52,498 bases of DNA, taken from positions 1 through 52,498 of the forward strand of contig QNYQ01000027.1 in assembly GCA_003978665.1 (NCBI GenBank), read 5' to 3'. Source of the stretch: Hyperthermus sp. GTDB lineage: Archaea > Thermoproteota > Thermoprotei_A > Sulfolobales > Pyrodictiaceae. Below the pieces are notes generated by a model. It did no database searches, had not been told where the DNA came from, and saw only the letters and a list, made by a program, of their open reading frames with translations. Every line of letters begins with the position of its first letter. Position 1 is the first letter of the stretch. Shown in pieces: positions 10,378-33,352 of this stretch. The position numbers and the translations under genes were made by a program.

Positions 10378-10507
10378 CCCGGGGAGAGGATTCTGGGCAG
10401 GAGGGTACGTAAACCGTATAGTAGCTTGGCGTTAGCCTACCACACTCCCCGGGCAACCATTCCCTCAAGGGGGAGGATCTACTATAGCCCGGCTGGTGGT
10501 GGGATCC

Positions 10508-11214: not shown

Positions 11215-11250
11215 CCCCCTCCCCGGGAGGGAGGGGGTGCATGGCTATGG

Positions 11251-11258
11251 ATATTTAA
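11251..11258 (-). promoter_or_regulatory. TATA-box candidate (TTAAATAT) for 10819..11214
   Basis: 37-44 nt upstream of the ATG. The intervening leader contains a 9-bp G/C hairpin at 11215-11237. Confidence 0.4.
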
Positions 11259-11484
11259 CATGTAAGACGATATTTTCGAGGATGCCGCAGCAGCCAGCAC
11301 AAGCGCCAGCTACCCGAAACAACACTTTACCCGGCCAAGCATGCTCGAAACTATCGCTGGTGAAGCCTGCGGGACTACAAGAAGCTGGTTGGATACAGTG
11401 GGCCGCGGAGGAGGCGGTTTTCAATAAAAAAGATTTTGGAGGGCTCGCCTGGCTGGATGGATTCCCCTCTTCGATCCTCGATTG

Positions 11485-11874
11485 TTAAGCGTAGAGTGCG
11501 TGGTAGCGTCCTTCCTCATCCCCCTCTACAATGCCCTCCTCTACAAGCTTGTTAAGCGCGTATCTAATCTTATCTTCACTGGCCAGTCCCGAGAGGATTT
11601 CATGGAGCTCGCGCACTGTCATGGGCTTATCCCTGAGAAGATTGAGTATGATTTCTCGCAGCTGGTCCTCGTTGGGTGCTACCACGACGACGACTTCGTC
11701 GTCCTCGTATAGCTTCTTCAATACTATGTCCTTACTGTATATGAACACTTCCTCTCCCGCCTCTAGGGTTCTTGCCTCGAACGACATGGCTTCCTCTCCC
11801 CCGGGTAAGATGGGCTTGCTTCCATGCCTCCGGCGGCTGAGGGCTCGGTCTAAGTTTTTCTCTTCCTCAGCCAC
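11485..11874 (-). CDS. winged-helix DNA-binding protein (129 aa)
   Basis: The C-terminal KPMTVRELHEILSGLASEDKIRYALNKLVEEGIVEGDEEGRY is a typical wHTH. GTG start. Confidence 0.55.
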   Translation of the reverse strand: MAEEEKNLDRALSRRRHGSKPILPGGEEAMSFEARTLEAGEEVFIYSKDIVLKKLYEDDEVVVVVAPNEDQLREIILNLLRDKPMTVRELHEILSGLASEDKIRYALNKLVEEGIVEGDEEGRYHALYA

Positions 11875-11957
11875 TGAAACTTATAGTTGTCGTGTGGTAT
11901 TATTTTGGAGTAGGGGTTCACATGCTGCCAAGACACATGCAGTGATTATTTCTCCGG

Positions 11958-12395
11958 GTGGCTCCTCTAGTGTATGCGGTTGATGATGCAGGTGAAATAC
12001 ACGGATTACTTGAGTCTGCACGCGAAAGGCTTGCTCTGCTCAGGCTTTGCGGTATTCTTGACGTGCTTGTGGAGGATAGTTCAAGGCTTGTGTCAAGGTA
12101 TAGTGCGTACTTGTCGAGTATTGGCGCGAGAGGGTTTAGTGGCGAGGCTGAGCGTGTAAGGAGGGTTCTTGAGGGCATAGAGCTCGTGAACACTATAGCT
12201 GTCAGGGCTAGGTCTAGGCTCTGTAGCGGCAGGCCCGGCTTAAGCGCTGTATACGACGTGTTGTCTATGTTCGAGAAACACTACCCCAGGCTCATGACAG
12301 GCTCCCTACTAGTGCCGGCCAGCCTGAGACAAGCATACTACGAGGCCTTCTCCCTGCTGAGAAGCCTAACAGCCACCAGCCCTCTCATAGACTAG
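11958..12395 (+). CDS. hypothetical protein (145 aa)
   Basis: ORF track with coding-like composition. Divergent from the wHTH gene, with AT-rich boxes between them. Confidence 0.4.
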   Translation: MAPLVYAVDDAGEIHGLLESARERLALLRLCGILDVLVEDSSRLVSRYSAYLSSIGARGFSGEAERVRRVLEGIELVNTIAVRARSRLCSGRPGLSAVYDVLSMFEKHYPRLMTGSLLVPASLRQAYYEAFSLLRSLTATSPLID

Positions 12396-12679
12396 GCTCT
12401 ACACGCCCCCCTCTCCCCCGGGGTTGGCCTGGGGCTTCTCGGGGCTGGTGGGGAGAAGGGCTCTAGCGGCCTAAAGCCTCGTCATCCTGGTTCAGCAGAG
12501 GCCTTGAGCCTCTTCACAGCCGCTGGGAGAGAGTGGTCTCCTCCACTTCCAGGTGGTTGGAGAGAAGCTTTAAGCTCGCTTACCGTACCCTGCCCTTCAC
12601 TGTTAGAGGGGGTTGGGGGTTTTTGTGGTGCACTGCTAGAGCCTCCTGCTACACGGCGTGGTAGAGGGGAAGGAGGGGG

Positions 12680-13042
12680 GTGTTGAGGGTAACTAGCGCC
12701 ATCCAGGCAGCTCTCCGTACTGCGCGTGTTCCGGGCAATGTTGCAGCTAAGGTTATGAACATAGTTGATTCTGCCTTGGGGGAGCATGGTGTTAGGGATG
12801 ACTCGGAGCTATTGTCCCTGCCCGACTGGAATGTATGGATGATCGTGATCAAGTCTATACTCTCTCCTTCAACGAAGCTGCTGCGGCAGGAGGGTTATTG
12901 TCATGCCAACGCAGCCCTCATAGGCTCGTTAATAGTGCTTGATGAGAGGCTTGCCCAGATGATTAGGGAGTGGGTGAAGGCGCGCTGCGGGGCAGGCCTT
13001 GACCCCTGCTGTAGAAACCCTCAATGCTGTAACATAGCTTAG
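12680..13042 (+). CDS. hypothetical protein (120 aa) with C-terminal C-x6-CC-x4-CC tail
   Basis: ORF track. Ends RCGAGLDPCCRNPQCCNIA. First of three same-strand ORFs. Confidence 0.4.
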   Translation: MLRVTSAIQAALRTARVPGNVAAKVMNIVDSALGEHGVRDDSELLSLPDWNVWMIVIKSILSPSTKLLRQEGYCHANAALIGSLIVLDERLAQMIREWVKARCGAGLDPCCRNPQCCNIA

Positions 13043-13065
13043 CCTGTGCCGCGGGGCGCCGTGCC

Positions 13066-13440
13066 ATGGTGCTGGAGGGCCTCAACGACTATGTTAGGCT
13101 TGTTGAGCTCTCACTGCGCCTAATAGCTGTCGGGGCGGGCTTAGAGAAGGCTGTCGCACACGCGCTCATCCACATGCTGCGCGAGAAAGGGCTCAGCCTA
13201 GATGATGCTGTACGCAGCATCGGGCTCACAGCCGGTGATGTGGACGAGTCACTACTCACCTACCTGGAGCTCGCAGGAGATGAAACCTCCACTTCGCTCT
13301 ATGCTTCAAGCCCCTACGCTGATATTGTACTACAGGAGAACAAGAGGCTCCTCGAGACCCTGAGCAAGCTTACTAGGAGGGATGAATGCCTATCCCTTGT
13401 GGCCCGAATAGCCGGTATCATGGAGGGTGCTGGGCGATAG
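13066..13440 (+). CDS. hypothetical helical protein (124 aa)
   Basis: ORF track. Overlaps the next ORF by 14 nt. Confidence 0.45.
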   Translation: MVLEGLNDYVRLVELSLRLIAVGAGLEKAVAHALIHMLREKGLSLDDAVRSIGLTAGDVDESLLTYLELAGDETSTSLYASSPYADIVLQENKRLLETLSKLTRRDECLSLVARIAGIMEGAGR

Positions 13441-13879
13441 GGGCTTAAGGGTTGATGGAGCAATGCCGTGTCCATGGTATCGTAACGGCCTCTGTACCTC
13501 TCCTAGACTGCGCAGGCCCACGGCGAGCGTCACGAACCCGTCAAGATGCCTTGGCGGCGAGTCGGAGTACAAGTCGTGCAGGCTCTACACTGAGCCGGCA
13601 AACGCCTCTTCTTCAGCATCAAAGTCCATAGCGTCTCCTAGGCCGGCGTTGATAGAGCAGCTGAAACCCTACAATCTCATCCACCTAGTTGAGAGGAAGC
13701 CTCAGGCAGGCTGCCCCTACATGAAGATCCACAACTATAGTGGAGGCTACCTCGCCGAATGCCTAGTGCTCGGAAGACTCCTAACGAGGAGCGAGGTAAA
13801 ACTCTGCGAGCAGGGCTGGAGCAGCTGCCCCTTCTACCGCTACGCTGTACAGCACCCGGAGTCCTTCCATAAACGCTAA
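13427..13879 (+). CDS. Cys-rich protein with two CP[WY][YM]...C...C...C[PR][FL]Y modules
   Basis: Module 1 is C15-x7-C23-x17-C41-x9-C51. Module 2 is C96-x15-C112-x14-C127-x6-C134. The alternative ATG at 13463 gives MPCPWY. Confidence 0.5.
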   Translation: MLGDRGLRVDGAMPCPWYRNGLCTSPRLRRPTASVTNPSRCLGGESEYKSCRLYTEPANASSSASKSIASPRPALIEQLKPYNLIHLVERKPQAGCPYMKIHNYSGGYLAECLVLGRLLTRSEVKLCEQGWSSCPFYRYAVQHPESFHKR

Positions 13880-13915
13880 AACACCAGGGACAGTCCCCCT
13901 TCAGCGTAGCTATCA

Positions 13916-14569
13916 CTATGCCAGGGAGGCTAAGCTCCTAACGAACCTAGACACGTCATCCCTGCTGGAAAACCTCCTCTCCCCGGAAACCCTGAAGCTT
14001 ACGTGAAAGCCCTCCTGCCCGCGCTCAACCTCCACAGTGAAGTTGTCTCCGCGCCTTATGGTCACCCGCTCTCCCTCCCTCGCCACCATAAACCCCCTCT
14101 CCCTCAACATGTCCAGGAGCTCTTCGAGCCCCAGCGCCCTAGCCCCCTGAGCTTCCACCGTTTCCCCCTCAAGCTCCTCAAGCCTCTTCTTGACCGCTCT
14201 CACCACCTCGTCCAGGTCCATGTACGCCTTCAAAGTCTCGTCAAGTATCCTCTTCATAACCTCCCTCCCCTTCCCCGTCTTCTCCGCCTTCACGTAGAGG
14301 AGGAGCTGGTCAAAGTCGCTGCTGTTAAGGTACTCCGCCAGCCTCCTAACATTCCCTCCGAAGGCATGGAACTTGTACTTGTCCTCAGCCTTCCCAACCT
14401 GCTGCCTAATCTCGTCGATAAGCTGTCTCGGAGCACCAGAACTGGCCAGCACCCTGTTCACTATGTGACGGAGAAAATCCTTTCTCTGCACCCTCAGCCA
14501 CCCCGGGCTGAACACTCGCTCCAAGAAAGATTGCAGTGTTAGGGCTGGGAGCCGAGAGATTAACCTCAC
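13916..14569 (-). CDS. hypothetical protein (217 aa)
   Basis: ORF track with clean coding composition. No recognisable motif. Confidence 0.5.
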   Translation of the reverse strand: MRLISRLPALTLQSFLERVFSPGWLRVQRKDFLRHIVNRVLASSGAPRQLIDEIRQQVGKAEDKYKFHAFGGNVRRLAEYLNSSDFDQLLLYVKAEKTGKGREVMKRILDETLKAYMDLDEVVRAVKKRLEELEGETVEAQGARALGLEELLDMLRERGFMVAREGERVTIRRGDNFTVEVERGQEGFHVSFRVSGERRFSSRDDVSRFVRSLASLA

Positions 14570-20796: not shown

Positions 20797-23769
20797 TTGG
20801 CCAGCGAGACAAGTGTTCTTGCGAGGCGTGAGCCTGTAAACAGGTTTGCAGCCTGGCTCTACGAGGTTGCCGAGAAGTGGCAGCGGAGGTGGCGGAGTGA
20901 TAGGGTTTTCGAGGCCAACCCCGACCCCTCGAAGCCAAAGTTCTTCATCACGGCTGCCTTCCCGTACCCTAACAGCCCCCTCCACCTGGGCCATAGTAGG
21001 ACCTACACCATAGCCGACGTCCATGCCAGGTTTAAGAGGATGCTGGGCTATAATGTGCTCTTCCCGATGGGCTTCCATTATACTGGGACACCTATTCTCA
21101 CGATGGCCGAGGCTATAGCTGCGGGGGACGAGGAGCTTATCGACCTCATGCTTAACGTCTACGATGTCCCGGCCAGTGAGCTTGACAGGTTGAAGGATCC
21201 TCTTTCCCTCGCAAGATTTTTCCACGAGGACGCGAAGAAGGCTATGAACGCTATGGGGTATAGTATAGACTGGAGGAGGGAGTTCACCACAATAGACCCT
21301 GAGTTCCAGAAGTTCATTGTATGGCAGTACACCAAGCTTAGGGAGAAGGGGCTGATCACTAAGGGGACTCATCCCGTAGGCTGGTGCCCTAAACACAACA
21401 TGCCCGTGGGGATGCATGACACCAAGAACGATGTGGAGCCCGAGATAGAAGAGTTCACTCTCATACTCTTCCGCCACGGGGAGGAGTTCTTTCCCGCAGC
21501 AACCCTGCGGCCCGAGACAGTGTTCGGCGTCACCAACCTCTGGGTAAACCCGGATGCCACCTATGTTAGGGTGAGGGTTGACGGTAGGGTTTACGTGGTC
21601 AGCAAGGAGGCGGCGTGGAAGCTGTCCTTCCAGAAGGATAGCGTGAATGTTGTCGGTGAGGTTAAGGGGAGGGAGCTTGTGGGGATTAGGGTTGTTAACC
21701 CGGCAACGGGCAGAGAGGTTCCGGTGCTCCCAGCATCATTTGTCGACCCCTCCACGGCCACCGGCGTGGTTATGAGCGTGCCAGCCCACGCACCCTACGA
21801 TTACGTGGCGTTGAAGGAGATGGTTGAGTCCCAGAGGGAGCTGCTGGAGTCTATAGGAGTGAGCGTGGACTCCCTCAAGCCAATCCCGCTGATAAGGGTT
21901 AGGGGCTACGGCAGTATCCCGGCCAAGGACATTGTGGAGAGAATGGGCATTAGTAGTCAAGCTGAGAGGTTGAAGCTTGACGAGGCCACTAGGACGCTAT
22001 ACAGCGACGAGTACCATGAGGGCGTGATGAGAGACGACATAGTGAGCCTCGTGTACCCGGACGCGCCGAGCGAGACAAGGGTTTTCATAAAAGCTCCCGT
22101 GGAGGCTTGGATCCGGGGGGCTAGCGTTAGGGATGCTAGGGAGGCAACCAGGAAGTGGCTTTCAGCTCTAGGCTTCACCGACGTGATGTATGAGATATCT
22201 AACAAGCCCGTCTACTGTAGATGTGGCACGGAGATAGTGGTGAAAGTGCTCAAGGACCAGTGGTTCATAAACTATGGTGACAGGGAGTGGAAGAAGACCG
22301 TACTAGAGCTCATAGACAACATGGCTATAGTCCCCCATGAGATGAGGGAGGAGTTTCTGAAAACCGTTGACTGGCTGCACGAGAGGGCTGTAGCCCGCAC
22401 CCGCGGGCTCGGGACAGAGCTTCCCTGGGCTAGGGGGTGGCGTATAGAGAGCTTGAGCGACTCTACTATATACATGGCGTTCTACACTATAGTCCACAAG
22501 CTCAAGCGCTACGGTATAAAGCCCGAAAAGCTCGGGGTGGAGTTCTGGGACTACGTGCTCCACGGCAGAGGCGACGTAGACAAGCTATCCTCATCGACGG
22601 GCTTAGACAGGAAGATTATAGAGGATTTGAGGGAGGAGTTTAACTACTGGTATCCGCTGGATGCAAGGCACAGCGGCAGAGACCTTGTACCAAACCACCT
22701 AACCTTCTTCATATTCCACCACGCAGCCCTATTCCCTAAGGACAAGTGGCCTCGGCAAATAGTGGTTAACGGCTTCGTAAGGCTTGAAGGAAAGAAGATG
22801 AGCAAGAGCCTAAGAAACATCATCCCCTTGAGGAGGGCGGTGAAGGTATATGGTCCAGACACTATCAGAGCTGCGCTGCTGGCCTCAGCCGAGCTCCTAC
22901 AGGATGCAGACTTCTCGGACAATCTAGCAATGAGTGTTCTCTCCCAGCTGGCCAAGCTGCTAAGATACCTAAAGCTTGTCGAGAAGGCTGATGGTGAAAG
23001 CGGGCTTGCGGACCGCTGGCTGCTAAGCAGGCTCCAAGACCATATTAGCAATGTGACCAAGTATATGAGCGAGCTACGTACAAGACATGCAACAATAACA
23101 CTCCTTTATGACATGGACAACGACGTGGTAAAGTACCTGGCTATTAGAGAGAGGCCTGGGCCAGCGCTTAGAGAGTACCTGGAGAAATGGGTGCTAATGC
23201 TCTCGCCCATAACACCGCACATAGCCGAGGAAATATGGCACATGCTAGGCCACGACACCTACGTATCGCTAGAGCACTGGCCCGTACCCGACCAGACCAA
23301 GATAGATAGGAGAGTAGAGCTCGCAGTAGAGTATGCTGAGAGGCTCATAGAAGACATTAGGGCAGTGCTTAGAGTAGTTAAGACTAAGCCTACAAGAGCA
23401 ATAATACTCGTCACCAGGCCCGAGAAATGGCCGCTGGCACAACAGGCTGCTGCCGTCATCAAGAAAGGCGGCCAGGTCAGGGACATTGTTAGGGCACTAC
23501 TGGGCAAAGTAGCCGACAAGGACAGCGCCAAGAGCATCGTGAAGATGGTAGAGTACATGAGGCAGCAGAGCATGAGCTACCTTGAACTAGTCTCCACGGT
23601 CAGCGAGTTCGATGAGAAGAAAGCAATCGAGGACCTAGGCAGCTACATAGCAAAGAAGACCTCGATACCCTCAATAGAAGTCTACTACGCTGACGAGGCT
23701 CCCCCTCAAGTGCCTGCATCCAAGGTGAAGGCGGCTATTCCAGGACGCCCGTCAATCACAGTGCTCTAG
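20797..23769 (+). CDS. leuS: leucyl-tRNA synthetase
   Basis: HIGH-type PYPNSPLHLGH and KMSKS motifs, an archaeal-type editing domain and a length of 990 aa. TTG start. Confidence 0.95.
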   Translation: MASETSVLARREPVNRFAAWLYEVAEKWQRRWRSDRVFEANPDPSKPKFFITAAFPYPNSPLHLGHSRTYTIADVHARFKRMLGYNVLFPMGFHYTGTPILTMAEAIAAGDEELIDLMLNVYDVPASELDRLKDPLSLARFFHEDAKKAMNAMGYSIDWRREFTTIDPEFQKFIVWQYTKLREKGLITKGTHPVGWCPKHNMPVGMHDTKNDVEPEIEEFTLILFRHGEEFFPAATLRPETVFGVTNLWVNPDATYVRVRVDGRVYVVSKEAAWKLSFQKDSVNVVGEVKGRELVGIRVVNPATGREVPVLPASFVDPSTATGVVMSVPAHAPYDYVALKEMVESQRELLESIGVSVDSLKPIPLIRVRGYGSIPAKDIVERMGISSQAERLKLDEATRTLYSDEYHEGVMRDDIVSLVYPDAPSETRVFIKAPVEAWIRGASVRDAREATRKWLSALGFTDVMYEISNKPVYCRCGTEIVVKVLKDQWFINYGDREWKKTVLELIDNMAIVPHEMREEFLKTVDWLHERAVARTRGLGTELPWARGWRIESLSDSTIYMAFYTIVHKLKRYGIKPEKLGVEFWDYVLHGRGDVDKLSSSTGLDRKIIEDLREEFNYWYPLDARHSGRDLVPNHLTFFIFHHAALFPKDKWPRQIVVNGFVRLEGKKMSKSLRNIIPLRRAVKVYGPDTIRAALLASAELLQDADFSDNLAMSVLSQLAKLLRYLKLVEKADGESGLADRWLLSRLQDHISNVTKYMSELRTRHATITLLYDMDNDVVKYLAIRERPGPALREYLEKWVLMLSPITPHIAEEIWHMLGHDTYVSLEHWPVPDQTKIDRRVELAVEYAERLIEDIRAVLRVVKTKPTRAIILVTRPEKWPLAQQAAAVIKKGGQVRDIVRALLGKVADKDSAKSIVKMVEYMRQQSMSYLELVSTVSEFDEKKAIEDLGSYIAKKTSIPSIEVYYADEAPPQVPASKVKAAIPGRPSITVL

Positions 23770-23962
23770 CAGTGCTCCTCAGCGTAGCTCAGCCTCCCCA
23801 TTAATCCCTCCTCCCGCTAGCGGGGGAGGGGGTTTCGGCTCTCCCATTCTCCTCATCAGAGCCAGCTAGCCTCGTCTAAGCCAGATACTATAACGGGTGA
23901 AGAGACGGGTAAATAGGGGTCACGCCCAAGTCCTGGCGGCACGTGGGCTTCCCGGGTTTGCC

Positions 23963-24033
23963 GGAGAGATGATGAGTATCCCGAACCCTGGAGCTCGGAT
24001 GCCGTGAAGCCGTGGCGGCTGGCTGAGGCCTCC
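23963..24033 (+). ncRNA. C/D-box sRNA candidate (2'-O-methylation guide)
   Basis: C box AUGAUGA at 23969-23975, a 12-nt guide, then D' CUGG at 23988-23991. C' GUGAAGC at 24004-24010, a 12-nt guide CGUGGCGGCUGG, then D box CUGA at 24023-24026. Flanking GGAG/CUCC can form a terminal stem. TATA-like TAAATAG lies about 45 nt upstream. The D guide complements CCAGCCGCCGCG of the 16S 530 loop with one G-U pair. Confidence 0.55.
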
Positions 24034-24060
24034 CTCTCCCCGCTTAAAGGTGGCTGGTGG

Positions 24061-24768
24061 CTACTTGATCGTGATCACTGTTATGTCTCTCCTTGCTGGG
24101 AACGCTACATTGATCACTCTCACACCGTCTATGCAGGCTTCCAGCCTCTTTGAGTTATGGGCGTGCCCGTGTATTACTAGGTGGGGCTTGCTCCTCACTA
24201 TTGCCCTCTCCATCGCCTTGCTTGCGACAAACCTCCATATCCTCTCGTCCTCTCCCTCTATAGTGGCGTATGTTGGGGCGTAGTGCATTACGGCTACTAC
24301 GGTATAGCCTTTTGAGCGTAGCGTCGCCACGCTCTGCTCGAGCCTGTTGACTACGCGCGTGTAGAAGAGCCTTATCCCGGGTATGTGCCTCCTCTGCCAT
24401 GTAGTCGGCTCGTCTATGGCTCCGCGTGTACCGTATACTGCCAGCTTCACTCCCCCAACCTCCATTAGCATGTAGGTGTCGTTCAGCCAGAGGACGTCAG
24501 TATAGGAGTTGATGAATACTGGCTCCCTGTCAAAATATTCCTCGTTGCCGAACACGGCTATTATCCTGGCGTTGGAGCAGAGCTTCTTGGTCACGTTAAC
24601 CACTGGCGCAAGCGCCTTCACATTACCCTTATCAACCATGTCGCCTGCCCAGATCACTAAGGGGGCATTACTGCACTCTTCCGCATGCCTATTTAAAGCC
24701 GAAATATACTGTAGTAGGTGGCGTGGACTGTGGACATCGCTCACGGCTATAATCGTTACTCCCTCCAA
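24061..24768 (-). CDS. calcineurin-like metallophosphoesterase
   Basis: IIAVSDVHSP, WAGDMVDKG, FGNEEY, VMHYAP and VIHGHAH motifs occur in canonical order. Confidence 0.8.
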   Translation of the reverse strand: MEGVTIIAVSDVHSPRHLLQYISALNRHAEECSNAPLVIWAGDMVDKGNVKALAPVVNVTKKLCSNARIIAVFGNEEYFDREPVFINSYTDVLWLNDTYMLMEVGGVKLAVYGTRGAIDEPTTWQRRHIPGIRLFYTRVVNRLEQSVATLRSKGYTVVAVMHYAPTYATIEGEDERIWRFVASKAMERAIVRSKPHLVIHGHAHNSKRLEACIDGVRVINVAFPARRDITVITIK

Positions 24769-24982
24769 AACACCTGCAACCCCGGGCTGGGAGCACTATA
24801 AGTATTGGAGGAGGCGCGGTGAATACGTCCCGGGCCCCTGGATCACTCCAGCCCCCAGGCCCTTTGAGGCTGCGGGGGCGTCACCGGCCCTTCCCTCCTT
24901 CCCGGGCCTTAGCCGGCCTCTTATCTCTTTAGGGTCGGCCACCACTATGCTGCTACCGGGGCCCTAGGCTTCCTCGTAGGCT

Positions 24983-24988
24983 TATTAC
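24983..24988 (+). promoter_or_regulatory. TATA-box candidate (TTATTA) for 25029..26750
   Basis: 41-46 nt upstream of the ATG. A GGAG Shine-Dalgarno-like element lies 6 nt before the ATG. Confidence 0.35.
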
Positions 24989-25028
24989 GGCTGGGAGGCT
25001 TCTTGTGTGAGGGGGTATAGGAGCATTC

Positions 25029-26750
25029 ATGGGCTTGTCTCGTGTACTCATACTTGACGGCTACACCGATGAGCCTGCTGGCTTTGGGGTTCCACCCTAC
25101 ATTGACGTCTACCCCAGGTATATTGCTGGTGCTCTATGGCTTGTGGACCCTGGCATTGTAGTGCACTATGTCACTGTTGATGAGGCTAGGAGGGACCTGG
25201 AGGGTTTCTTGGAGAGAGCCAACAGCTACGACCTTGTGGTCTTTATTGCAGGAGCCATTGTCCCCGGCAAGTACATTGGAGGGGAGCCTATTAGGCTAGA
25301 GGAGTTGAAGTCTTGGCCCGCCATGCTTGAGAGGCCTTTCAAGGTCCTCGTGGGCCCGGCGGCGCGCTGGGGGATAGGTAACGAGGGCGGGAGTATAGCC
25401 GTGTTGCCGCGCGAGGTCAAGAGCTCTTTTGACGCCGTGGTAACCGGGGATGTTGAAGCCTATTTCTACGAGGCAGCTAGGCATGGGGTAGAGCATGCTG
25501 AGGAGTGGAGGGTGCTGGATGACCTAGAGTTGACAGGTAAGGCTGCCGTCAAGGGGGCTAGGATAGTTAGGCAGCACCCAAACCACGGCTATAACCTCAT
25601 AGCCGAGATCGAGACCTACCGTGGCTGCGCTAGATGGATCACCGGCGGCTGCAGCTTCTGCGCAACAAGACTCTACGGCAGGCCCAGGCAGAGAACCCCT
25701 CTTAGCGTGGTAAGAGAGGTTGAGGCACTCTACCTTGAGGGTGTCAGGCACTTCCGGATCGGAAGGCAGGCAGACATAATCGTTTACGGCAGCCGGGAGC
25801 TGGGCGAGGAGGAGTGGCCCAAGCCCGAGCCCGAAATGCTTAGGAGGCTCTTCCACGGGCTGAGAATGGTTGCTCCAGGGCTTGAGACGCTCCACATAGA
25901 TAATGTAAACCCGGGCACGCTCGTAAGGCATCGCGAGGAGAGCGTTGAAGCCCTGAAGACAATAATAAAATACCACACGCCAGGCGATGTTGCAGCGCTA
26001 GGCATTGAAACAGCCGACCCGCGGGTAGTGAAGATAAACAACCTCAAGACAATGCCCGATGAAAGCCTGGAGGCGGTGAGGCTAGTTAATAGAGTGGGGA
26101 ATAAGCCCTCTCCCCTAGGCCTGCCCGAGCTGCTGCCAGGCATAAACTTTGTTCTCGGATTACCCGGGGAGACCAGTGAGACGTACAGGCTTAACCTGGA
26201 GTTCCTAGAGAGGATCTACGAGGAGGGGCTTCTCGTAAGGCGCATAAACGTGCGCAAGGTCCTCGTCCTGCCTGGGACAAGGCTTGTGAAGGAGAAGGTG
26301 CTGGAGAGGCTTAGGAGGCATGAGAGGCTCGCTAAAATATTTAGGCGCGAGGTAATGCGCTACTCCAGGATGTTCCTGGAGAGACTATTGCCCAGAGGCT
26401 CTATCCTATGCTGCGTCTACGTGGAGAAGTATTCAGAATCCCTCGGAGTAACCTTCGCGAGGCAGGCTGGCAGCTACCCTGTCGTAGTAGAGCTGCCCTG
26501 CAAGCTCCCACGCCGGATGCTGAAGAGAGTATTCATCTACGACGTCTCCGCTAGAAGCGTGAGGGGACTACCCCTCCCCCTAAACGCCAACACCACCCCC
26601 CTAACACTGCTCTCAAGGGTCCTGGGCCGCACGCTAGCACTCAGGATAGCGGGCAGCCGCCCGTTAAAAACGGAGGAAGAACTACAAAAAATACTAGGCG
26701 AGAAGGGAGGGGAGAGCCTAGTGTCCCTAAACGGGTTTAGCTGCAAGTAA
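25029..26750 (+). CDS. radical SAM protein, COG1031-like (Cys-free flavodoxin-like N-domain, Cx7Cx2C, TRAM-like barrel, C-terminal helix-hairpin-helix)
   Basis: ILDGYTDEPAGFGVPPYIDVYPRYIAGA at the N-terminus. YRGCARWITGGCSFCATRLYGRPRQR carries C200-x7-C208-x2-C211. TRAM-like LCCVYVEKYSESLGVTFARQAGSYPVVVEL. HhH-like LSRVLGRTLALRIAGSRPLKTEEEL. Confidence 0.85.
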   Translation: MGLSRVLILDGYTDEPAGFGVPPYIDVYPRYIAGALWLVDPGIVVHYVTVDEARRDLEGFLERANSYDLVVFIAGAIVPGKYIGGEPIRLEELKSWPAMLERPFKVLVGPAARWGIGNEGGSIAVLPREVKSSFDAVVTGDVEAYFYEAARHGVEHAEEWRVLDDLELTGKAAVKGARIVRQHPNHGYNLIAEIETYRGCARWITGGCSFCATRLYGRPRQRTPLSVVREVEALYLEGVRHFRIGRQADIIVYGSRELGEEEWPKPEPEMLRRLFHGLRMVAPGLETLHIDNVNPGTLVRHREESVEALKTIIKYHTPGDVAALGIETADPRVVKINNLKTMPDESLEAVRLVNRVGNKPSPLGLPELLPGINFVLGLPGETSETYRLNLEFLERIYEEGLLVRRINVRKVLVLPGTRLVKEKVLERLRRHERLAKIFRREVMRYSRMFLERLLPRGSILCCVYVEKYSESLGVTFARQAGSYPVVVELPCKLPRRMLKRVFIYDVSARSVRGLPLPLNANTTPLTLLSRVLGRTLALRIAGSRPLKTEEELQKILGEKGGESLVSLNGFSCK

Positions 26751-26827
26751 TAAACCCCGTCCAAGACCCTTACGCTTAGGGTGTGCGGGGAAAGAGGGGG
26801 GTGGGCTAAAAGCCATAGCATTCAGCT

Positions 26828-26856
26828 AAATAGTTTTTAAGTTTGCTTTATTGAAA
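26828..26856 (+). promoter_or_regulatory. AT-rich promoter region (AAATAGTTTTTAAG / CTTTATTGAAA) for 26898..28739
   Basis: This is the only strongly AT-rich stretch in the 147-bp spacer, 45-70 nt upstream of the start. Confidence 0.4.
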
Positions 26857-26897
26857 TCTTAGCTTGCAGTAGCTTTGTGGGCGAAGGACTGTGTTGA

Positions 26898-28739
26898 GTG
26901 ATGAGGGAAGAGGGTATGGATGAGAGCATGAAGCCGTTAGAGAAGTCTAGGGCGGACAGCGGGCTGCTTGACGCTCCCAGCATCTTCGATGCTAAGAGCG
27001 GGAGGATCACTATAAACGGTAGGGAAATCGCCTTCGGAGGCCCCCTCCCGAGGCTCGGGGAGGGGGAGAAGCTTATCGCCTATACCACGAGCCTCTGCCC
27101 CTACTGCTACAGGGTGCTGCCCGCAGTCATCTTCGAGAGGGAGGGCAAGGTCTTCATTAAGAGGACTTGCCCGGAGCACGGCACCATCGAGGAACTATAC
27201 TTCAGCAGCTCCAGGCTCTACCATAGGTTTATGAGGTTTGAGGAGGAGGGTATAGGCGTAACCCCTCACGTCAAGCTTAGGTCCCCCTGCCCCTTCAACT
27301 GCGGCCTCTGCCCCCGCCACAAGAACCACACGGCACTGGCCAACCTTGTGGTCACTAACCGCTGTGACCTCTCATGCTGGTACTGTTTCTTCTACGCCGA
27401 GAAGGTGGGCTACGTCTATGAGCCGAGCCTTGAGCAGATTAGGGAGATGATAAGGCAGTATAGGAAGGAAGGAGTGAGCATGGCCGTACAGATCACTGGC
27501 GGGGAGCCCACGCTCCGCCCGGACCTACCGGAGATAATAAGGCTGTTGAAGGAGGAGGGGGTTACCCATATACAGTTAAACACTCATGGAGTAACGTTCG
27601 CTAGGATGTGGTTCGAGGAGGGAGTTGAGGCCGCCGTTAAATATGCTAGGGTTCTCCGTGAAGCCGGGCTTAACACGGTATACATGAGCTTCGACGGTGT
27701 AACCCCCAGAGCCAACCCGAAGAACCACTGGGAGGCCCCCTACACGCTTGAAGTATTCCGGAAGGCCGGGGTTACCAGTGTCGTGCTAGTCCCCACCGTT
27801 ATAAAATCCATTAATGACGGAGAGCTCGGCGACATCATAAGGTTCGCGGCCAAGCACATAGACGTTGTCAGGGGAGTCAACTTCCAGCCCGTAAGCCTCA
27901 CCGGGAGGATGAGGAGGGATGTTAGGGAGAAGTATCGTGTAACAATACCAGATGTGCTGCAATGGGTCGAGGAGCAGACAGACGGCCAGATACCGGCCGA
28001 GTCATGGTTCCCCATCCCGGTCGCAGCAAAGTTCTCCTATTTCATCGAGGCGTTGAGCGGAGAGCTGAAGGTGTGCATGGGCAACCACCCCGCCTGCGGC
28101 TCTGCTACGTACGTGTTCATCGAGAGGGGGGCCGACGGCCTACCCTCAAGGTTCATACCGATAACGTCCTTCTTCGATGTTGAAGGCTTCATAGAGTACA
28201 TAGAGGAGAAGACGGGGGAGCTCCGCAAAACAGAGGATGCACTATTCTCAAGGTTCAGGAAGACCTTGCAGGCAGCATCCATACTAAAAGACCTGCCAAA
28301 GTTTATTGATAGGGAGAAGCTGCCCCAGGGACTCAACATAACCAAGCTGCTCATGAACGTGTTTATAAAAAGGAACTATGAAGCCCTAGGCCAGCTCCAC
28401 TACAAGATGCTATTCCTGGGGAACATGCACTTCATGGACCTCTACAACTATGACGTGGAGAGGGTGATGAGATGCAACATACACTACCTCTCGCCGGACG
28501 GCAGGGTAATACCGTTCTGCGCGTACAACGTACTCAACGACATCTACCGCGACAACATACTATGGAAGTATAGGATCGGGCTCGACGAGTACAAGAAGAG
28601 GTACGGAGAGAAAAGCGTAGGGCCCGGAGTCAAATACGTCAGGAACATAAAGCTCCTGAAGAGCACACCAATATACTACGAAGCCTACAAGGGAATAGTA
28701 CCGGACAGCGTGCTCAAGGGAGGAGCCGCCAAGAGCTAA
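26898..28739 (+). CDS. tes: radical SAM protein, tetraether lipid synthase (Tes / GDGT-MAS)-like
   Basis: N-terminal rubredoxin-like CPYC...CPEHG, then CPFNCGLCPRHKNHT, the radical SAM motif NRCDLSCWYC and ITGGEPTLRP. Length of 613 aa. The family assignment is from memory of MJ0619/Tes-type proteins. The CDS call is firmer than the function. Confidence 0.75.
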   Translation: MMREEGMDESMKPLEKSRADSGLLDAPSIFDAKSGRITINGREIAFGGPLPRLGEGEKLIAYTTSLCPYCYRVLPAVIFEREGKVFIKRTCPEHGTIEELYFSSSRLYHRFMRFEEEGIGVTPHVKLRSPCPFNCGLCPRHKNHTALANLVVTNRCDLSCWYCFFYAEKVGYVYEPSLEQIREMIRQYRKEGVSMAVQITGGEPTLRPDLPEIIRLLKEEGVTHIQLNTHGVTFARMWFEEGVEAAVKYARVLREAGLNTVYMSFDGVTPRANPKNHWEAPYTLEVFRKAGVTSVVLVPTVIKSINDGELGDIIRFAAKHIDVVRGVNFQPVSLTGRMRRDVREKYRVTIPDVLQWVEEQTDGQIPAESWFPIPVAAKFSYFIEALSGELKVCMGNHPACGSATYVFIERGADGLPSRFIPITSFFDVEGFIEYIEEKTGELRKTEDALFSRFRKTLQAASILKDLPKFIDREKLPQGLNITKLLMNVFIKRNYEALGQLHYKMLFLGNMHFMDLYNYDVERVMRCNIHYLSPDGRVIPFCAYNVLNDIYRDNILWKYRIGLDEYKKRYGEKSVGPGVKYVRNIKLLKSTPIYYEAYKGIVPDSVLKGGAAKS

Positions 28740-28866
28740 GAAGCCGGCAGCACCAGCACTCGACGCATAACGTCTCGCGCACAACCACCCGTGCCCCAGA
28801 AGGTTTCTCTCATCCCCCTACTGTCAAGCAGCAGGCTCCTAGGAGCCAGAAGGGCATGCAGAGGGT

Positions 28867-29631
28867 TTACTGTGGCTGTTTTACCTCTAGCCTGCTGAGC
28901 CAGTGTTTTTTGAAGATTGACCATACGGTCTCCATGACGTGTCCTTCTTCGACACCCTTGATAGCGGCGATCTCCCTCACAACCCTGGATACCATTGTGG
29001 GGCTTAAGTGTAGCCCCCTATACTTGTAGGGGGCGTCGCTCTCAGTCAGCATTATCTCTAGTGGAGCCTCCCTAACAACATTCCTGTGCTTAGCCTGGAT
29101 CGCTATGGCCGGGTTTATTGAGATCGTGTAGCCTAGGCTGGCAATGTCTCTAATCAGGTGGATGGGGCCGGTATACCAGTGGAAGTTAGCGTAGCCTACA
29201 TCGTATCTCACGAGGAGGCGGAGAACCTCCTCCCATGTCCCTGCAGTGTGAAGGTTTAGTATGAGGCCATGGTCGCGGGAGGCTTCAAGGAATACCCTGA
29301 ATACTTCACGCTGCAGGCTAATGGTGTCTCCAACAAACTTGGTGTCAAGCCCTACCTCGCCAAGACACTTGACTCCCTCCCTTAACGCCATCTCGACAAC
29401 CCTCTCTGCCTGGGAAACGCTCTCCCTGCCCTTAACCTCCCATGGATGAACCCCAACGCAGGGTATGACGTCTTCAACAAGCCTTGAAGCCCTAAGGGTC
29501 TTCATGGACGAGTCCAAGTCGTCTGATACAGCCACTATTACGAGCCTGTTCTCCCTTACGATGGTGGAGAGAAAGCCTATGTCATACTCGTGCGCGTGAC
29601 TGTGAACATCGACATACCTAGCCTCCATCAA
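28867..29631 (-). CDS. tatD: TatD-family metal-dependent hydrolase
   Basis: VDVHSHAHEY at the N-terminus, internal GEVGLD, LHTAG and a late TESDAPY motif. Confidence 0.85.
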   Translation of the reverse strand: MMEARYVDVHSHAHEYDIGFLSTIVRENRLVIVAVSDDLDSSMKTLRASRLVEDVIPCVGVHPWEVKGRESVSQAERVVEMALREGVKCLGEVGLDTKFVGDTISLQREVFRVFLEASRDHGLILNLHTAGTWEEVLRLLVRYDVGYANFHWYTGPIHLIRDIASLGYTISINPAIAIQAKHRNVVREAPLEIMLTESDAPYKYRGLHLSPTMVSRVVREIAAIKGVEEGHVMETVWSIFKKHWLSRLEVKQPQ

Positions 29632-29728
29632 CCCCTCACCCTTTTTTCACGCTCAGTCAGGCACCGTGGTTGTTTGCTTCCGGGTTTAGGGTATCGGTCT
29701 ATGAGAGTGCTTTTGGCGCCTTCATCCC

Positions 29729-29968
29729 CTACACTACCACCGGTATCCTCGCTCTCCTCAAGAGCTCGCGGAACTCCTCTAGAGCTAGCCCGGCGAGCCT
29801 GGCTGCCAGCCTTATGTCCCCCCTCTCAATATAGTATTTTAGTGCTTCTCTTATTCTTGCTGGCTGCTTGTTTATGAACTCCCAGTCAGCCATAGAACGC
29901 CTAATCCTCCTAGCCTCTTCCTCCTCAAGGTAAACTACCTCGTCAAGCTGCTCCCCCTCATCCCGCAT
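29729..29968 (-). CDS. UPF0175-family antitoxin-like protein (copy 2, downstream of the PIN gene)
   Basis: IREALKYYIERGDIRLAARLAGLALEEFRELLRRARIPV is UPF0175/COG2886-like. Shares an 87-bp identical segment with 30506..30730. Confidence 0.7.
   Translation of the reverse strand: MRDEGEQLDEVVYLEEEEARRIRRSMADWEFINKQPARIREALKYYIERGDIRLAARLAGLALEEFRELLRRARIPVVV
29831..29917. repeat. 87-bp perfect direct repeat, copy A (inside antitoxin copy 2)
   Basis: atagtattttagtgcttctcttattcttgctggctgcttgtttatgaactcccagtcagccatagaacgcctaatcctcctagcctc is identical to 30608-30694. Confidence 0.9.
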
Positions 29969-30516
29969 ATCCTTCTCACCTCCTCCACTGCCGTCTGCAG
30001 AGCCTTAGTGGGGAATACGTGCAGCGTGTCTGACGCGTACTCTTCAAACACTCTTCCCGGCCGATTACAGTCGGCCTCAAGTATGCCCGTCTTCACAGCC
30101 TCCAATATGACTTCGAGAGCCCTCCACACGCTGACACTTCCATAGTCCCTAAACACCCGGGGCGCTAGCAGGGCTGCCCTATTCTCGGTCAACACGATGT
30201 AGCCCCTCCGCCTCCCAGCCACAAGACAAAGGGCTTCAGGAAGCTCCATTGAGGGGAGCTGTGGGTGGAGATGACTCCTTTCAATGAGCTGGCGTGCCTC
30301 CTCTATCTCACTAGCCACGGGAGTATAGAGCGCCAGCACACCCTCCGTGAGCCCCCGCGTAATCCATGATATCGTCTCCTCGGACCTAACCTCATCGAGC
30401 ACCTGCTCCGGCACGAAGACGGTGCTGAATAGCTTGAACAAGATGCCCTTGTGACGGTAGCGTGCCCAGTCTATGAGGAAGCAGGTATCGGCTATTGCGA
30501 AGGATCTAGGCGACAT
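29935..30516 (-). CDS. PIN-like nuclease domain protein (DUF3368/COG2405-type toxin)
   Basis: FAIADTCFLID...VFVPEQVLDEV...ELPEALCLV...IVLTENRAA follows the PIN acidic-residue pattern. Flanked by and overlapping UPF0175 genes, the known cognate partner family. Confidence 0.7.
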   Translation of the reverse strand: MSPRSFAIADTCFLIDWARYRHKGILFKLFSTVFVPEQVLDEVRSEETISWITRGLTEGVLALYTPVASEIEEARQLIERSHLHPQLPSMELPEALCLVAGRRRGYIVLTENRAALLAPRVFRDYGSVSVWRALEVILEAVKTGILEADCNRPGRVFEEYASDTLHVFPTKALQTAVEEVRRICGMRGSSLTR

Positions 30517-30730
30517 TGGGTATCTTCGCCCTTATACGCAGCTCGTTGAACTCCTCAACGGTTACTCCGGCTATGCGTGAGGCGACGTAGAGGTCTCCCG
30601 TTTCAACATAGTATTTTAGTGCTTCTCTTATTCTTGCTGGCTGCTTGTTTATGAACTCCCAGTCAGCCATAGAACGCCTAATCCTCCTAGCCTCCTCCGC
30701 ATCGGCCAGCATGCTGACCGTCTGGGCCAA
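30506..30730 (-). CDS. UPF0175-family antitoxin-like protein (copy 1, upstream of the PIN gene)
   Basis: IREALKYYVETGDLYVASRIAGVTVEEFNELRIRAKIP. Overlaps the PIN gene start by 11 nt. Confidence 0.7.
   Translation of the reverse strand: MAQTVSMLADAEEARRIRRSMADWEFINKQPARIREALKYYVETGDLYVASRIAGVTVEEFNELRIRAKIPNVA
30608..30694. repeat. 87-bp perfect direct repeat, copy B (inside antitoxin copy 1)
   Basis: Identical to 29831-29917. The flanks diverge immediately. Confidence 0.9.
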
Positions 30731-30803
30731 TACCCTCTCCCAACCTATTCCATGTAGTCTTCCAGGTTTTTTAATGATACCATTGAGCAGCCCGGCAGAA
30801 GAG

Positions 30804-31964
30804 TTAGCTAACGGGCTCGTATACTATGCCGAGCCTGCTGGCAATACTATACGCCTCTTCTATCTCATCCCTCCTTAAGCTCCTAGCTATCTCCCTCCAC
30901 CTCCTAGGATACTTGAGCACCATGTGCTCTGGCCTATACTGGTCCATTATGTTTACGAGCACCTTGTCGAGTCTCAAGTTGCTGGCTATCCACTCCAGTA
31001 CTCTTCTCGTGCAGCACTCCACGTGGCCTGGGAGGACTAGGTGGCGTATAATCATGTCGCCGTTCTCCGCGGCTATTTTCAGGTTTCTTGTGACGACTTC
31101 AAAGTAGTTTGGGACAGCTGACAGTCTTAGGGCGCACTTGTTGTTGCCGTACTTGAAGTCGGGGAGCCAGAGGTCTATTAGGTCGCTCAATACGAGTGTC
31201 GCGTCAAGGGTCATGTACATGTTGGAGTTCCATATCTGGGGCACGTTCACGTCGAGGAACTTGAAGGATTCCACTATTACGTGGAGGCTTGGAGTGGGCT
31301 CGCCGCCTACATGGTTTATGTTCCTTGCGCCGTGAACCCGCAGCTCCCTCTGTATTAGAGCGAGCCGTCTTGCATCAACTCTTCCAGCCATCCTGGGATA
31401 TACCTGGCTTATGTCGTAGTTTTGGCAGTAGACGCACGTGAAGTTGCAGCCCCCGTAGAATATTGTTCCGCTCGGAACCAGGGGTGGCTCCTCGCCCAGG
31501 TGGTGGAACCAGCTGTGGACGTAGACGTTGTAGTCCAGCCTGCACGCGCCAATACTCTTCTCCCTATCTACGCCGCACCTTCTCTCGCATAGCCTGCAGG
31601 GTTTTGAGAGCAGCTTGACGATCCTCACGTCGACGTCAAGGAGGCTGGTGGAGGGGGGGCTTCTACTGTCTCTCCTATAGTCTTCGAGGCTGTATTTGCC
31701 GTGTAGCGCATGCGTGACTAGGCCTTCTAGCTCGCGTCTGTAGCTCCTCCTGGCATCCTTCAACTCCTCCAAGCCCATGTCATCAATTCTTTCAGGCACC
31801 TCAACAAGCTTAGCCAACAGGAACTTTGCCGGGGCATCATCCCGCATGACAGCATAGTACCAGGACAGAGCCCTCCTAACCCTAACATCATCCCACACGA
31901 GAACAGCGTCTGGACGGAGCCTAGCCCACAGCCCGGCCGGGACATACCGGTCGAGCAAATGCAT
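30804..31964 (-). CDS. radical SAM protein, PflX/COG1313-like (pyruvate formate-lyase activase homolog)
   Basis: YGGCNFTCVYCQNYDISQ plus an upstream Cys cluster CRLCERRCGVDREKSIGAC. Confidence 0.8.
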   Translation of the reverse strand: MHLLDRYVPAGLWARLRPDAVLVWDDVRVRRALSWYYAVMRDDAPAKFLLAKLVEVPERIDDMGLEELKDARRSYRRELEGLVTHALHGKYSLEDYRRDSRSPPSTSLLDVDVRIVKLLSKPCRLCERRCGVDREKSIGACRLDYNVYVHSWFHHLGEEPPLVPSGTIFYGGCNFTCVYCQNYDISQVYPRMAGRVDARRLALIQRELRVHGARNINHVGGEPTPSLHVIVESFKFLDVNVPQIWNSNMYMTLDATLVLSDLIDLWLPDFKYGNNKCALRLSAVPNYFEVVTRNLKIAAENGDMIIRHLVLPGHVECCTRRVLEWIASNLRLDKVLVNIMDQYRPEHMVLKYPRRWREIARSLRRDEIEEAYSIASRLGIVYEPVS

Positions 31965-31966
31965 CT

Positions 31967-33352
31967 TTACCTCTTGCCCCGGGATGACACGGGGTAAATG
32001 TAGTCTCTCGGAGCCTTCTTAAACACTTCAAGATACGGCCGGAGCACCTTAGGTATCTTGACTACTCCATCCTCGTCCTGATGGTTCTCGAGTATTGCAG
32101 TGATCGTTCTGGTAGAGGCTATTGCGGTAGAGTTCAGCATGTGGACGTACTCTCTCTGCATCCCCTTCCTCCTCACAAGCCTTACGCCAAGCCTATAGCT
32201 CTGCCAGTCAGTAGTATTGCTGGCGCTCACCATCTCCCTATACCTACCCTGAGCAGGCATCCAAACCTCAAGGTCATACTTCTTCGCTGCAGGAGCACCG
32301 AGCTCGCCCGAGGCCACGTTAACCACCCTGTAGGGTAGCTCCAGGCCCTGGAAGAGCTGCTCAGCGTTCGCTATGAGCTCCTCAAGCAGCTCCCAGCTCT
32401 CCTCGGGCTTGGAGTAGACGAACTGCTCCACCTTGTGGAACTGGTGTACACGGAAGATCCCCTTAAGATCCCTGTTACCCGCGCCCGCCTCGCGGCGGAA
32501 ACAGGGGCTTATGCCTAGAAGCTTTATTGGGAGCTCATCCTCCATGATCTCCTCGCCGGCATATAAACCCGCCAGGGGGTGCTCGGCCGTAGCTATTAGA
32601 TAGAGGTTTTCTCCCTCAACCTTGTATATCGCGTCACGGAACGTGTCCATGTCGATTACACCCATCAGTATATCGTACCTAACCATGTATGGGGGAATGA
32701 CAAGCCTAAACCCCTTAGCAGTCAAAACGTCTACAGCATACATTATCAACGCCATATCAAGCCAGACAAGGTCGTCGAAGAGGTAGTAGAAGCGTGAGCC
32801 AGCAACCTTACTGGCACGCAGCGTGTCACCCAGCCCGAGAACCTTCTCAAGCATATCAGCGTGGCCTATAGGCTTCCAGTCAACAACATCATAGCTCACC
32901 TGAAAACCCCGCTTAACAGTCTGCTCAAGGAAGCTCTCAAGAAACCCACGGTAGACCCTAGGCCTGCCCCAGTAGCGTAAGGGCTCATTGTACTCGTCGC
33001 TATCCCCCACGGGAACCGAGGGATGAACGATGTTGGGGAGCGAGAGGAGAAGCCTCCTCCTCTCCTCCTCAACCCTCCTAAGCCTAGCCTCAAGCTCCTC
33101 GCGCCTACGCACAATAAGCCTTGCCTCCTCTATAAGCCTCCTCTTCTCGCCGGGATCCGAGGCCTTAGACACGAGCCTCGTCACAACATTGTGCTTATGC
33201 CGTAGCTCGTCAACCTCCCTCTTAAGCTTCCTCCACAAGCCATCAAGCTCTACAGCCTTATCGATAATTGACGCATCCATCCCCCTCTTAGCCAGGCTCT
33301 CCTTCAACACGCTAGGGTTCTCGCGTAGATAGCGTAGAATACTCCAGGTCAA
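31967..33352 (-). CDS. serS: seryl-tRNA synthetase
   Basis: N-terminal coiled-coil arm, class II motif 2 CFRREAGAG...[10 protein letters not shown] and motif 3 region [18 protein letters not shown]. Confidence 0.95.

Follow-up and report, generated by a model that had tools for sequence, protein, structure and literature searches.

A 52,498-nucleotide stretch of DNA from a Hyperthermus sp. (contig QNYQ01000027.1, positions 1-52498, hereafter the window), which originates from a hydrothermal-vent metagenome, carries at its centre two adjacent plus-strand genes for radical S-adenosylmethionine (SAM) enzymes. The first encodes a 573-residue protein (25029..26750, ATG start) and the second a 613-residue protein (26898..28739, GTG start). 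Both genes belong to already known families: the second is tes, which encodes the tetraether synthase Tes (GDGT/MAS), and the first is a member of COG1031, a family for which our literature searches found no functional study or assigned reaction. The 573-aa protein is a single-cluster radical SAM enzyme that has the domain order of the methylthiotransferases (MTTases), a basic TRAM/OB-like barrel and, at the level of the family, a helix-hairpin-helix (HhH) motif. For the reading that it is a nucleic-acid-directed radical SAM enzyme, tied to tes by lineage-specific synteny, we judge the balance to be about even. The main value of the locus lies in this COG1031 gene, which stands for a widespread and strongly conserved family with MTTase architecture minus the defining auxiliary cluster; its orthologues in genetically tractable species (Thermococcus kodakarensis and haloarchaea related to Haloferax) make the role directly testable. 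The analysis also corrects two tempting inferences, namely that Cx7Cx2C is a mark of the family and that adjacency to tes is a sign of lipid function.

An earlier note on this DNA had placed two adjacent open reading frames at these positions, quoted their motifs and described them as a COG1031-type enzyme of no assigned substrate and an enzyme of the Tes/GDGT-MAS type. Frames and motifs are all present as described; homologue labels agree with the first assignment and the literature searches found no substrate, and the second is borne out by an equivalog hidden Markov model above its cut-off and by a full-length match to the crystallised enzyme 7TOL. Their length, conservation and hundreds of homologues mark both as real coding sequences and not chance open reading frames.

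A single cluster behind a cysteine-free domain

The closest named relatives of the 573-aa protein come from Pyrodictium and Pyrofollis (66-68 % identity) and carry the JGI label COG1031. Sources that name family members use 'radical SAM superfamily enzyme with C-terminal helix-hairpin-helix motif' for COG1031, which is also the label of the window gene. At least 2996 homologues have the COG1031 label, and the family is a compact one: of 1.8 billion proteins, 151 representatives reach E<=1e-30 and 531 reach E<=1e-3. It ranges over Thermoproteota, Thermococcales, Thermoplasmatota, methanogens, Asgard archaea, Halobacteria and some bacteria (Mesotoga, Synergistaceae and a Firmicutes metagenome-assembled genome, MAG). 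The family alignment covers 19 members, among which the archaea are represented by Thermoproteota, Thermococcales, Halobacteria, Methanosarcinales, Methanomicrobiales, Thermoplasmatota, a lineage resembling anaerobic methanotrophs (ANME-like) and Asgard, and the bacteria by Mesotoga, Synergistaceae, a Firmicutes MAG and another bacterium. Over its full length, the 573-aa protein is 33-67 % identical to members from all phyla. The long members of the family show no informative domain fusions; one 'fusion' with a histidine kinase seems to be a gene call that is chimeric or truncated.

Cysteines occur in the 573-aa protein at positions 200, 208, 211, 461, 462, 491 and 572, and none is found in residues 1-199. 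Only C200, C208 and C211 are invariant in 19/19 members; they make up the sole cluster-type motif, a [4Fe-4S] site of the form C200-x7-C208-x2-C211 (25626..25661, reading C200-ARWITGG-C208-SF-C211). Because just these three are invariant, the family has one cluster and no MTTase-type auxiliary cluster, which excludes methylthiolation of the MiaB type. The number of residues between the first two cysteines differs among lineages: Halobacteria have 3 (the canonical CX3CX2C), Methanolobus has 5, Mesotoga 6, Thermoproteota 7, Thermococcales 8 and Synergistaceae 9. Judged by sequence, Cx7 is a variable loop length in an ordinary radical SAM site, not a family trait. Attempts to connect the family through CX7CX2C with RadicalSAM.org Megacluster-2-5 (ELP3/YhcC subgroup) or with PoyB and PoyC made no link, and the motif is not family-wide.

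The Rossmann-like domain that precedes the cluster (residues 1 to ~165; 25029..25523, plus strand) is defined by its b-a-b-a-b secondary structure, by whole-chain Foldseek matches and by invariant columns. It is free of cysteine, acidic (net charge -11) and contains the N-terminal string ILDGYTDEPAGFGVPPYIDVYPRYIAGA, the most conserved stretch of the COG1031 family. Its most conserved elements are DGYxDxPxxxGVPP, R30, D51, R54 and GxxxxGxYxxxxP, and the invariant loops, in longer form DGYxDxPxxxGVPPxxxxxxR and GxxxxGxYxxxxP, should, by analogy with MiaB and the class B enzymes, face the active site. The radical SAM core (residues ~186-420; 25584..26288, plus strand) is matched by PF04055 at residues 205-387 and by phmmer to RimO (4JC0) and MgmA (9CCB), and carries an MTTase-style 'GLPGETSETY' motif. 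A helical linker leads to the barrel, which is basic, TRAM-like and five-stranded (residues ~456-520; 26394..26588, plus strand) according to a domain model and its structural matches. The chain ends in a helical tail (26589..26747, plus strand) with helices at residues 525-556 in the AlphaFold2 model, a degenerate HhH that reads V--LGRTLALRIAGSRP as against the family consensus LPGIGxKRAxxIxxxRP. Linker, barrel and tail, the C-terminal half of the protein, together have a net charge of +16.

At the level of profiles, Pfam finds only Radical_SAM in the 573-aa protein (42 bits). No Pfam HhH model matches it; HHH_3, HHH or HHH_5 match 13 of the 19 family members, and the HhH tail is clear in most members and absent from Aeropyrum, Acidilobus and Stetteria. 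The Pfam models for TRAM, B12-binding (PF02310) and the MTTase N-domain (UPF0004) match none of the 19, even at E<=1. NCBIfam returns far-sub-threshold matches to B12/radical SAM families (TIGR04013, 44 bits; MgmA model, 34 bits) and to MiaB/RimO, the best PDB sequence match is RimO 4JC0 (E 1e-4), and PADLOC gives no defence-system match for the protein.

A predicted methylthiotransferase-like fold without the auxiliary cluster

An AlphaFold2 model of the 573-aa protein, built with 16 homologues, has a predicted local distance difference test (pLDDT) value of 86.5 and a predicted template-modelling (pTM) value of 0.87. When the whole chain is compared with the PDB by Foldseek, the best match is MiaB (7MJZ/7MJX; E 7e-17, template-modelling (TM) score 0.70 of target, 544 columns), followed by MtaB and RimO and then by the B12 enzymes MgmA, TsrM, OxsB and TokK. 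MiaB, MtaB and RimO (7MJZ, 9A6D, 4JC0), which as best whole-chain matches reach TM scores of 0.65-0.70 of target, have the same order of Rossmann-like domain, radical SAM barrel and TRAM as the 573-aa protein and also share the GxPGET motif. The 573-aa protein differs from them in having no N-domain cysteines, and hence no auxiliary [4Fe-4S] cluster, in its added HhH tail, in the variable spacing of the first two cluster cysteines, and in a TIGR00089 score of 22.8 bits against a cut-off of 251. With the N-domain cysteine triad missing and TIGR00089 far below its cut-off, identification as an MTTase was rejected.

The C-terminal module was also modelled alone (pLDDT 88). Superposition of the isolated barrel on MiaB's TRAM domain gives a root-mean-square deviation of 2.3 A, and the module matches the stand-alone archaeal TRAM proteins 1YVC/1YEZ (TM 0.66-0.68), the TRAM domain of RlmCD, S1/OB RNA-binding domains and the OB+HhH portion of RuvA. 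E-values for these matches are weak (0.01-0.05) because the domain is small, yet all are nucleic-acid-binding folds.

Three points of the earlier note can be judged here. That the absence of N-domain cysteines argues against a MiaB-like MTTase agrees with a MiaB-like fold in which no N-domain cysteine is conserved. The non-canonical Cx7Cx2C motif is real, but as a distinctive or family feature it fails, the spacing running from x3 to x9 by lineage. The view that the TRAM and HhH elements favour a nucleic-acid substrate is supported, with a TRAM-like barrel and an HhH of the family; in the window protein itself, the tail is degenerate.

The fold ranking also raises the possibility of a cryptic class B-like radical SAM methylase, whose N-domain would bind B12 without a Pfam signature; this would be a mechanistic variant and not a different substrate. 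Class B enzymes (MgmA 9CCB, TsrM 6WTE, TokK 7KDX) resemble the 573-aa protein in joining a Rossmann-like N-domain to a radical SAM core, and form its second tier of structural matches, with OxsB among these neighbours; the weak B12/radical SAM models, although far below cut-off, are its top NCBIfam matches, and Cx7Cx2C has been noted in the B12 methylases PoyB and PoyC (PMC5682303). However, PF02310 is unmatched in all 19 members, the MTTases rank above the B12 enzymes in the fold search, the Cx7 spacing varies across the family, and TRAM+HhH stand in place of the class-B C-terminal domains. We therefore regard a hidden B12 site as very unlikely.

A protein substrate would fit other parts of the same evidence. 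In a RimO-like modification, the TRAM-like barrel would dock a ribosomal protein, or another conserved one, and a side chain would be the target of the radical. RimO is among the best whole-chain matches and is the best PDB sequence match; its TRAM domain binds the ribosomal protein S12. MgmA, a close structural match, modifies a protein, and the Thermococci copy of the COG1031 gene lies near an S-layer gene in two lineages whose COG1031 proteins are 46 % identical. By contrast, most family members possess an HhH, which is typical of nucleic-acid binding, the isolated barrel matches mainly RNA-binding TRAM/S1/OB domains, and there is no auxiliary cluster for sulfur insertion. On balance, protein modification appears unlikely.

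The downstream gene encodes an ordinary Tes

From its sequence, the 613-aa protein is an ordinary Tes, the organism's tetraether synthase, and formation of glycerol dialkyl glycerol tetraethers (GDGTs) is predicted. Its score on the NCBIfam equivalog NF045702 'tetraether lipid synthase Tes' is 718 bits against a cut-off of 450, with model positions 2-484 of 486 covered, and Pfam matches it to the zinc ribbon PF23545 (Zn_ribbon_HMPTM) and to Radical_SAM. Residues 56-569 align full-length and collinearly with the crystallised M. jannaschii GDGT/MAS (7TOL, E 9e-143), and all four metal sites of that enzyme are kept. The rubredoxin-like/zinc-ribbon domain (27075..27203, plus strand; C67, C70, C91, H94; PF23545 68 bits, residues 60-102) reads CPYC...CPEHG and corresponds to CPIC...CPEHG of 7TOL, and the N-terminal [4Fe-4S] site CPFNCGLCPRH (27288..27320, plus strand; C131, C135, C138, H141) aligns with CPYDCGLCPNH. 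The radical SAM motif C156-x3-C160-x2-C163 (27363..27386, plus strand; NRCDLSCWYC) is canonical and pairs with CNLNCPIC, while C400, C526 and C541 match conserved C-terminal cysteines of 7TOL in HxxCG, MRC and PFC contexts. The ligand scheme of the N-terminal and C-terminal auxiliary clusters is that of PMC13459092.

Compared with 7TOL, the 613-aa protein has an N-terminal extension of ~55 residues and a small core insertion at residues ~227-236, neither of which affects the family assignment. The start codon of tes is uncertain, and could be GTG 26898 or an ATG at 26901, 26916 or 26928. Tes joins the termini of two phytanyl chains, and so converts archaeol-type diethers to GDGT, by means of its radical SAM cluster, a pair of auxiliary [4Fe-4S] clusters and an iron in a rubredoxin-like site. 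Abstraction by a 5'-deoxyadenosyl radical takes place twice in succession, and the C-terminal cluster keeps the substrate radical that forms first (PMC13459092). The finding of Tes is routine annotation and would confirm the GDGT-making capacity of this vent archaeon.

Both genes show signs of heterogeneity in the source metagenome run. The assembly splits into several short alternative contigs at 26639-26707, within the C-terminal tail of the 573-aa protein, and a single G>C difference lies at 28418, within tes; this suggests strain-level variation that is concentrated in the degenerate HhH tail.

Adjacency to tes and the lipid question

The two genes are separated by a 147-bp spacer with a TATA-like element (26751..26897, plus strand). 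Its A+T content rises to 75-80 % at ~26821-26860, and the element, 'AGTTTTTAAGTTT', lies ~60 nt before the tes start codon. The spacer between the COG1031 gene and tes exceeds 50 nt in 26/26 syntenic loci, and TATA-like boxes (TTTTTATAC or TTTAAAT) are present in 8/8 aligned Pyrodictiaceae spacers, where they were noted by eye, the spacers being too diverged to align. Given spacers of this length and these boxes, the COG1031 gene and tes look separately promoted, and tes probably has a promoter of its own. The gap of 147 bp and the AT-rich promoter that had been noted before the second gene are thus both recovered, the former as the exact spacer length and the latter as a predicted A+T-rich, TATA-like stretch.

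Across 80 genomic loci from Thermoproteota, tes lies directly downstream of the COG1031 gene and on the same strand in 26. These comprise every Pyrodictiaceae locus of sufficient length to judge, another clade of Desulfurococcales and a single locus besides; Acidilobaceae, Aeropyrum, Thermofilaceae, Vulcanisaeta, Thermoproteus and Staphylothermus lack the adjacency. The conservation of the gene pair, which had been put forward as a check, therefore holds for Pyrodictiaceae and some Desulfurococcales but not at wider range. Other Pyrodictiaceae (L001-L012) have the gene order SerRS > rSAM386 > COG1031 > Tes > <TatD <Metallophos <LeuRS, where rSAM386 denotes a third radical SAM gene, for a protein of 386 aa. 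The window is rearranged over 20797-33352, with the phosphoesterase and LeuRS genes upstream and those for TatD, a PIN protein, rSAM386 and SerRS downstream, and the COG1031-tes pair has remained intact.

A lipid role would account for this pairing if the COG1031 enzyme altered isoprenoid chains or aided or prepared the Tes substrate, so that the two genes formed a lipid module. The 26 tes-adjacent loci fall on at least three branches and include lineages without other common neighbours, and the pair was held together through the rearrangement of the window. Many archaeal lipid tailoring steps are, moreover, radical SAM reactions (PMC13459092), and the bacterial carriers of COG1031 (Thermotogota, Synergistaceae, a Firmicutes MAG) come from phyla with reported Mss homologues.

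The distribution of the family speaks against such a role. COG1031 proteins occur across Halobacteria (Natrialbaceae, Haloarculaceae, Halococcus, Haloprofundus and others) with 75-87 % identity between genera and 47 % identity to the 573-aa window protein, although haloarchaea are diether-only and mostly lack Tes; their lipid is archaeol only, and ~20 haloarchaeal genomes have a Tes homologue with no GDGT detected (PMC8941075). T. kodakarensis, which possesses the COG1031 gene, makes plain GDGTs and no glycerol monoalkyl glycerol tetraethers (GMGTs), and the AhbD-like SPASM enzyme Gms is absent from it (PMC11214058); this excludes Gms and Gmm as functions of the family. Nor is the gene next to tes in Thermococcales, Thermofilaceae, Acidilobaceae, Thermoproteales, Asgard or bacteria. 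At the protein level, the C-terminal module is a basic TRAM/OB+HhH unit and not a hydrophobic lipid pocket, and the predicted promoter-bearing spacer parts the two genes.

Nor do the characterised lipid-tailoring enzymes (Grs, Gms, Gmm, GDGT methylases, Ted and bacterial Mss) seem to offer a counterpart beyond membership in the radical SAM superfamily. From their descriptions, these enzymes are B12-binding or SPASM/AhbD-like, and the 573-aa protein has neither signature. Grs can cluster with other lipid genes, as the COG1031 gene here clusters with tes; compared by description with GrsA/B, COG1031 members have no B12-binding signature and occur in Halobacteria without GDGTs. Identification of the 573-aa protein as Gms or Gmm was rejected on its T. 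kodakarensis orthologue, in an organism with no GMGT and no Gms, and on the missing SPASM/B12 signature. Mss, whose archaeal homologues are reported from Asgard and DPANN only, was rejected as a relative on this distribution, again by description.

The conservation of COG1031 across most archaeal phyla is independent of tetraether synthesis. A lipid-tail role, which the earlier note had kept open as an alternative, is not supported, given the presence of the family in archaeol-only Halobacteria and in bacteria and its position away from tes in Thermococcales, and we consider a lipid module distinctly unlikely. The adjacency is a lineage-specific synteny of two genes that look separately promoted, and it would reflect at most co-regulation and not a shared lipid pathway.

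A proposed nucleic-acid-directed activity

For the nucleic-acid-directed reading, a plausible sequence of events would begin with SAM binding to the C200/C208/C211 cluster and its reductive cleavage. The resulting 5'-deoxyadenosyl radical would take a hydrogen from a nucleotide of RNA or, less likely, of DNA, while the basic TRAM/HhH module would hold the nucleic-acid substrate. The loops of the Cys-free acidic N-domain would sit where an MTTase has its auxiliary cluster or a class-B enzyme its cobalamin, and might supply or position the second reactant. More tentatively, COG1031 may constitute a fourth branch of 'Rossmann + radical SAM + TRAM' enzymes, in which the Cys-free acidic N-domain replaces auxiliary cluster or cobalamin, for an unassigned and possibly undiscovered tRNA, rRNA or DNA modification in most archaeal phyla, and which in Pyrodictiaceae and Desulfurococcales would stand beside tes through co-regulation; we hold this fuller proposal to be possible, although well short of probable.

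Several observations weigh against a nucleic-acid-directed enzyme that is linked to tes by synteny only. The COG1031-tes pair is the most persistent adjacency of the neighbourhood, found on three or more distinct branches in the tree of the family, and it is kept where all other neighbours differ and through the local rearrangement of the window. An adjacency beyond neutral-synteny expectation hints at a functional or regulatory link; the favoured model leaves this persistence unexplained, and the co-regulation proposed is a guess. Neighbours elsewhere are heterogeneous (ThiL-like, S-layer, asparaginase, MutL and major facilitator superfamily (MFS) genes). The TRAM identity is one of fold level, with weak domain E-values of 0.01-0.05, and the TRAM of RimO has a protein and not RNA as its ligand. 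The HhH, degenerate in the 573-aa protein and missing in Aeropyrum and Acidilobus, is dispensable. Finally, we know of no orphan archaeal RNA modification with a COG1031-like phyletic pattern.

Gene neighbourhoods of COG1031 members

The third radical SAM gene of the window (30804-31964, minus strand) encodes a 386-aa protein that resembles glycyl-radical activases and NrdG in sub-threshold family matches and has an N-terminal extension of ~160 residues. In other Pyrodictiaceae, this gene is located directly upstream of the COG1031 gene with a gap of ~35 nt (for example, L001 4814-5965 and L002 4808-5959), which makes a run of three radical SAM genes (386-aa, COG1031, Tes); the rearrangement of the window has parted the first of these from the second. 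Neither the 386-aa protein nor the radical SAM neighbour in Thermococcus was accepted as a COG1031 member (23 % identity), the latter being an AmmeMemoRadiSam enzyme.

Among the same 80 loci, a gene of the ThiL-like AIR-synthase family lies directly upstream of, and on the same strand as, the COG1031 gene in 24, often within ~50 nt and with an overlap in L056; it scores 141-154 bits on TIGR01379, below the cut-off of 184. Loci with this arrangement include L018, L024, L028, L031-L036, L040, L041, L046, L052, L053, L056, L060, L061, L065, L067 and L076. As ThiL belongs to the thiamine-phosphate kinase family, the linkage could point to small-molecule or cofactor biosynthesis, for example related to thiamine. 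The ThiL link is, however, absent from Pyrodictiaceae (including the window), Acidilobaceae, Asgard and bacteria, and the thiL gene of T. kodakarensis lies on the opposite strand at a distance of 6.7 kb. A small-molecule substrate would also leave the TRAM/HhH module unexplained, and no radical step is known to be missing from thiamine synthesis in archaea. We consider a cofactor role highly improbable, and return to the nucleic-acid-directed reading as the favoured one.

The T. kodakarensis orthologue is flanked by KsgA, DUF655, RpoF, L21e and Pus10 genes and, at its opposite end, by the S-layer gene, with no adjacent tes. In Thermococci (L081, T. kodakarensis, 8001-14482; L085, 7001-13494), the COG1031 gene is convergent with an unannotated gene for a protein of 259-269 aa, beyond which come S-layer, MJ0538-family and AmmeMemoRadiSam-system radical SAM genes. 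The S-layer arrangement is common to T. kodakarensis and a Thermococci MAG, although their COG1031 proteins share just 46 % identity.

Unrelated genes surround the COG1031 gene in an Asgard bin, in another archaeal contig and in bacterial contigs, namely SMC/ScpB, an MFS transporter, asparaginase and mutL/rpsO/pnp. On the bacterial contig L088 (2-3371), the COG1031 gene shares 11 nt with the 3' end of mutL and is followed by rpsO-pnp; in E. coli, mutL is followed by miaA, a gene for tRNA modification. In Mesotoga prima (L083 8001-10633), the COG1031 gene has a 4-nt overlap with the asparaginase/GatD-like gene downstream of it. GatD is also encoded ~6 kb from the T. kodakarensis copy, possibly by coincidence.

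No tRNA gene lies anywhere in the 52.5-kb window (1-52498), and no Rfam family reaches its gathering threshold there. Downstream of tes, a minus-strand gene for a PIN-like protein of 193 aa (29935-30516) follows one for a TatD-family nuclease (28867-29631, minus strand), which has a sub-threshold likeness to the Qat nuclease QatD (96 bits versus 230; PADLOC E 3e-24). As TatD is syntenic in 13 related loci, it probably has a housekeeping function and not one in defence.

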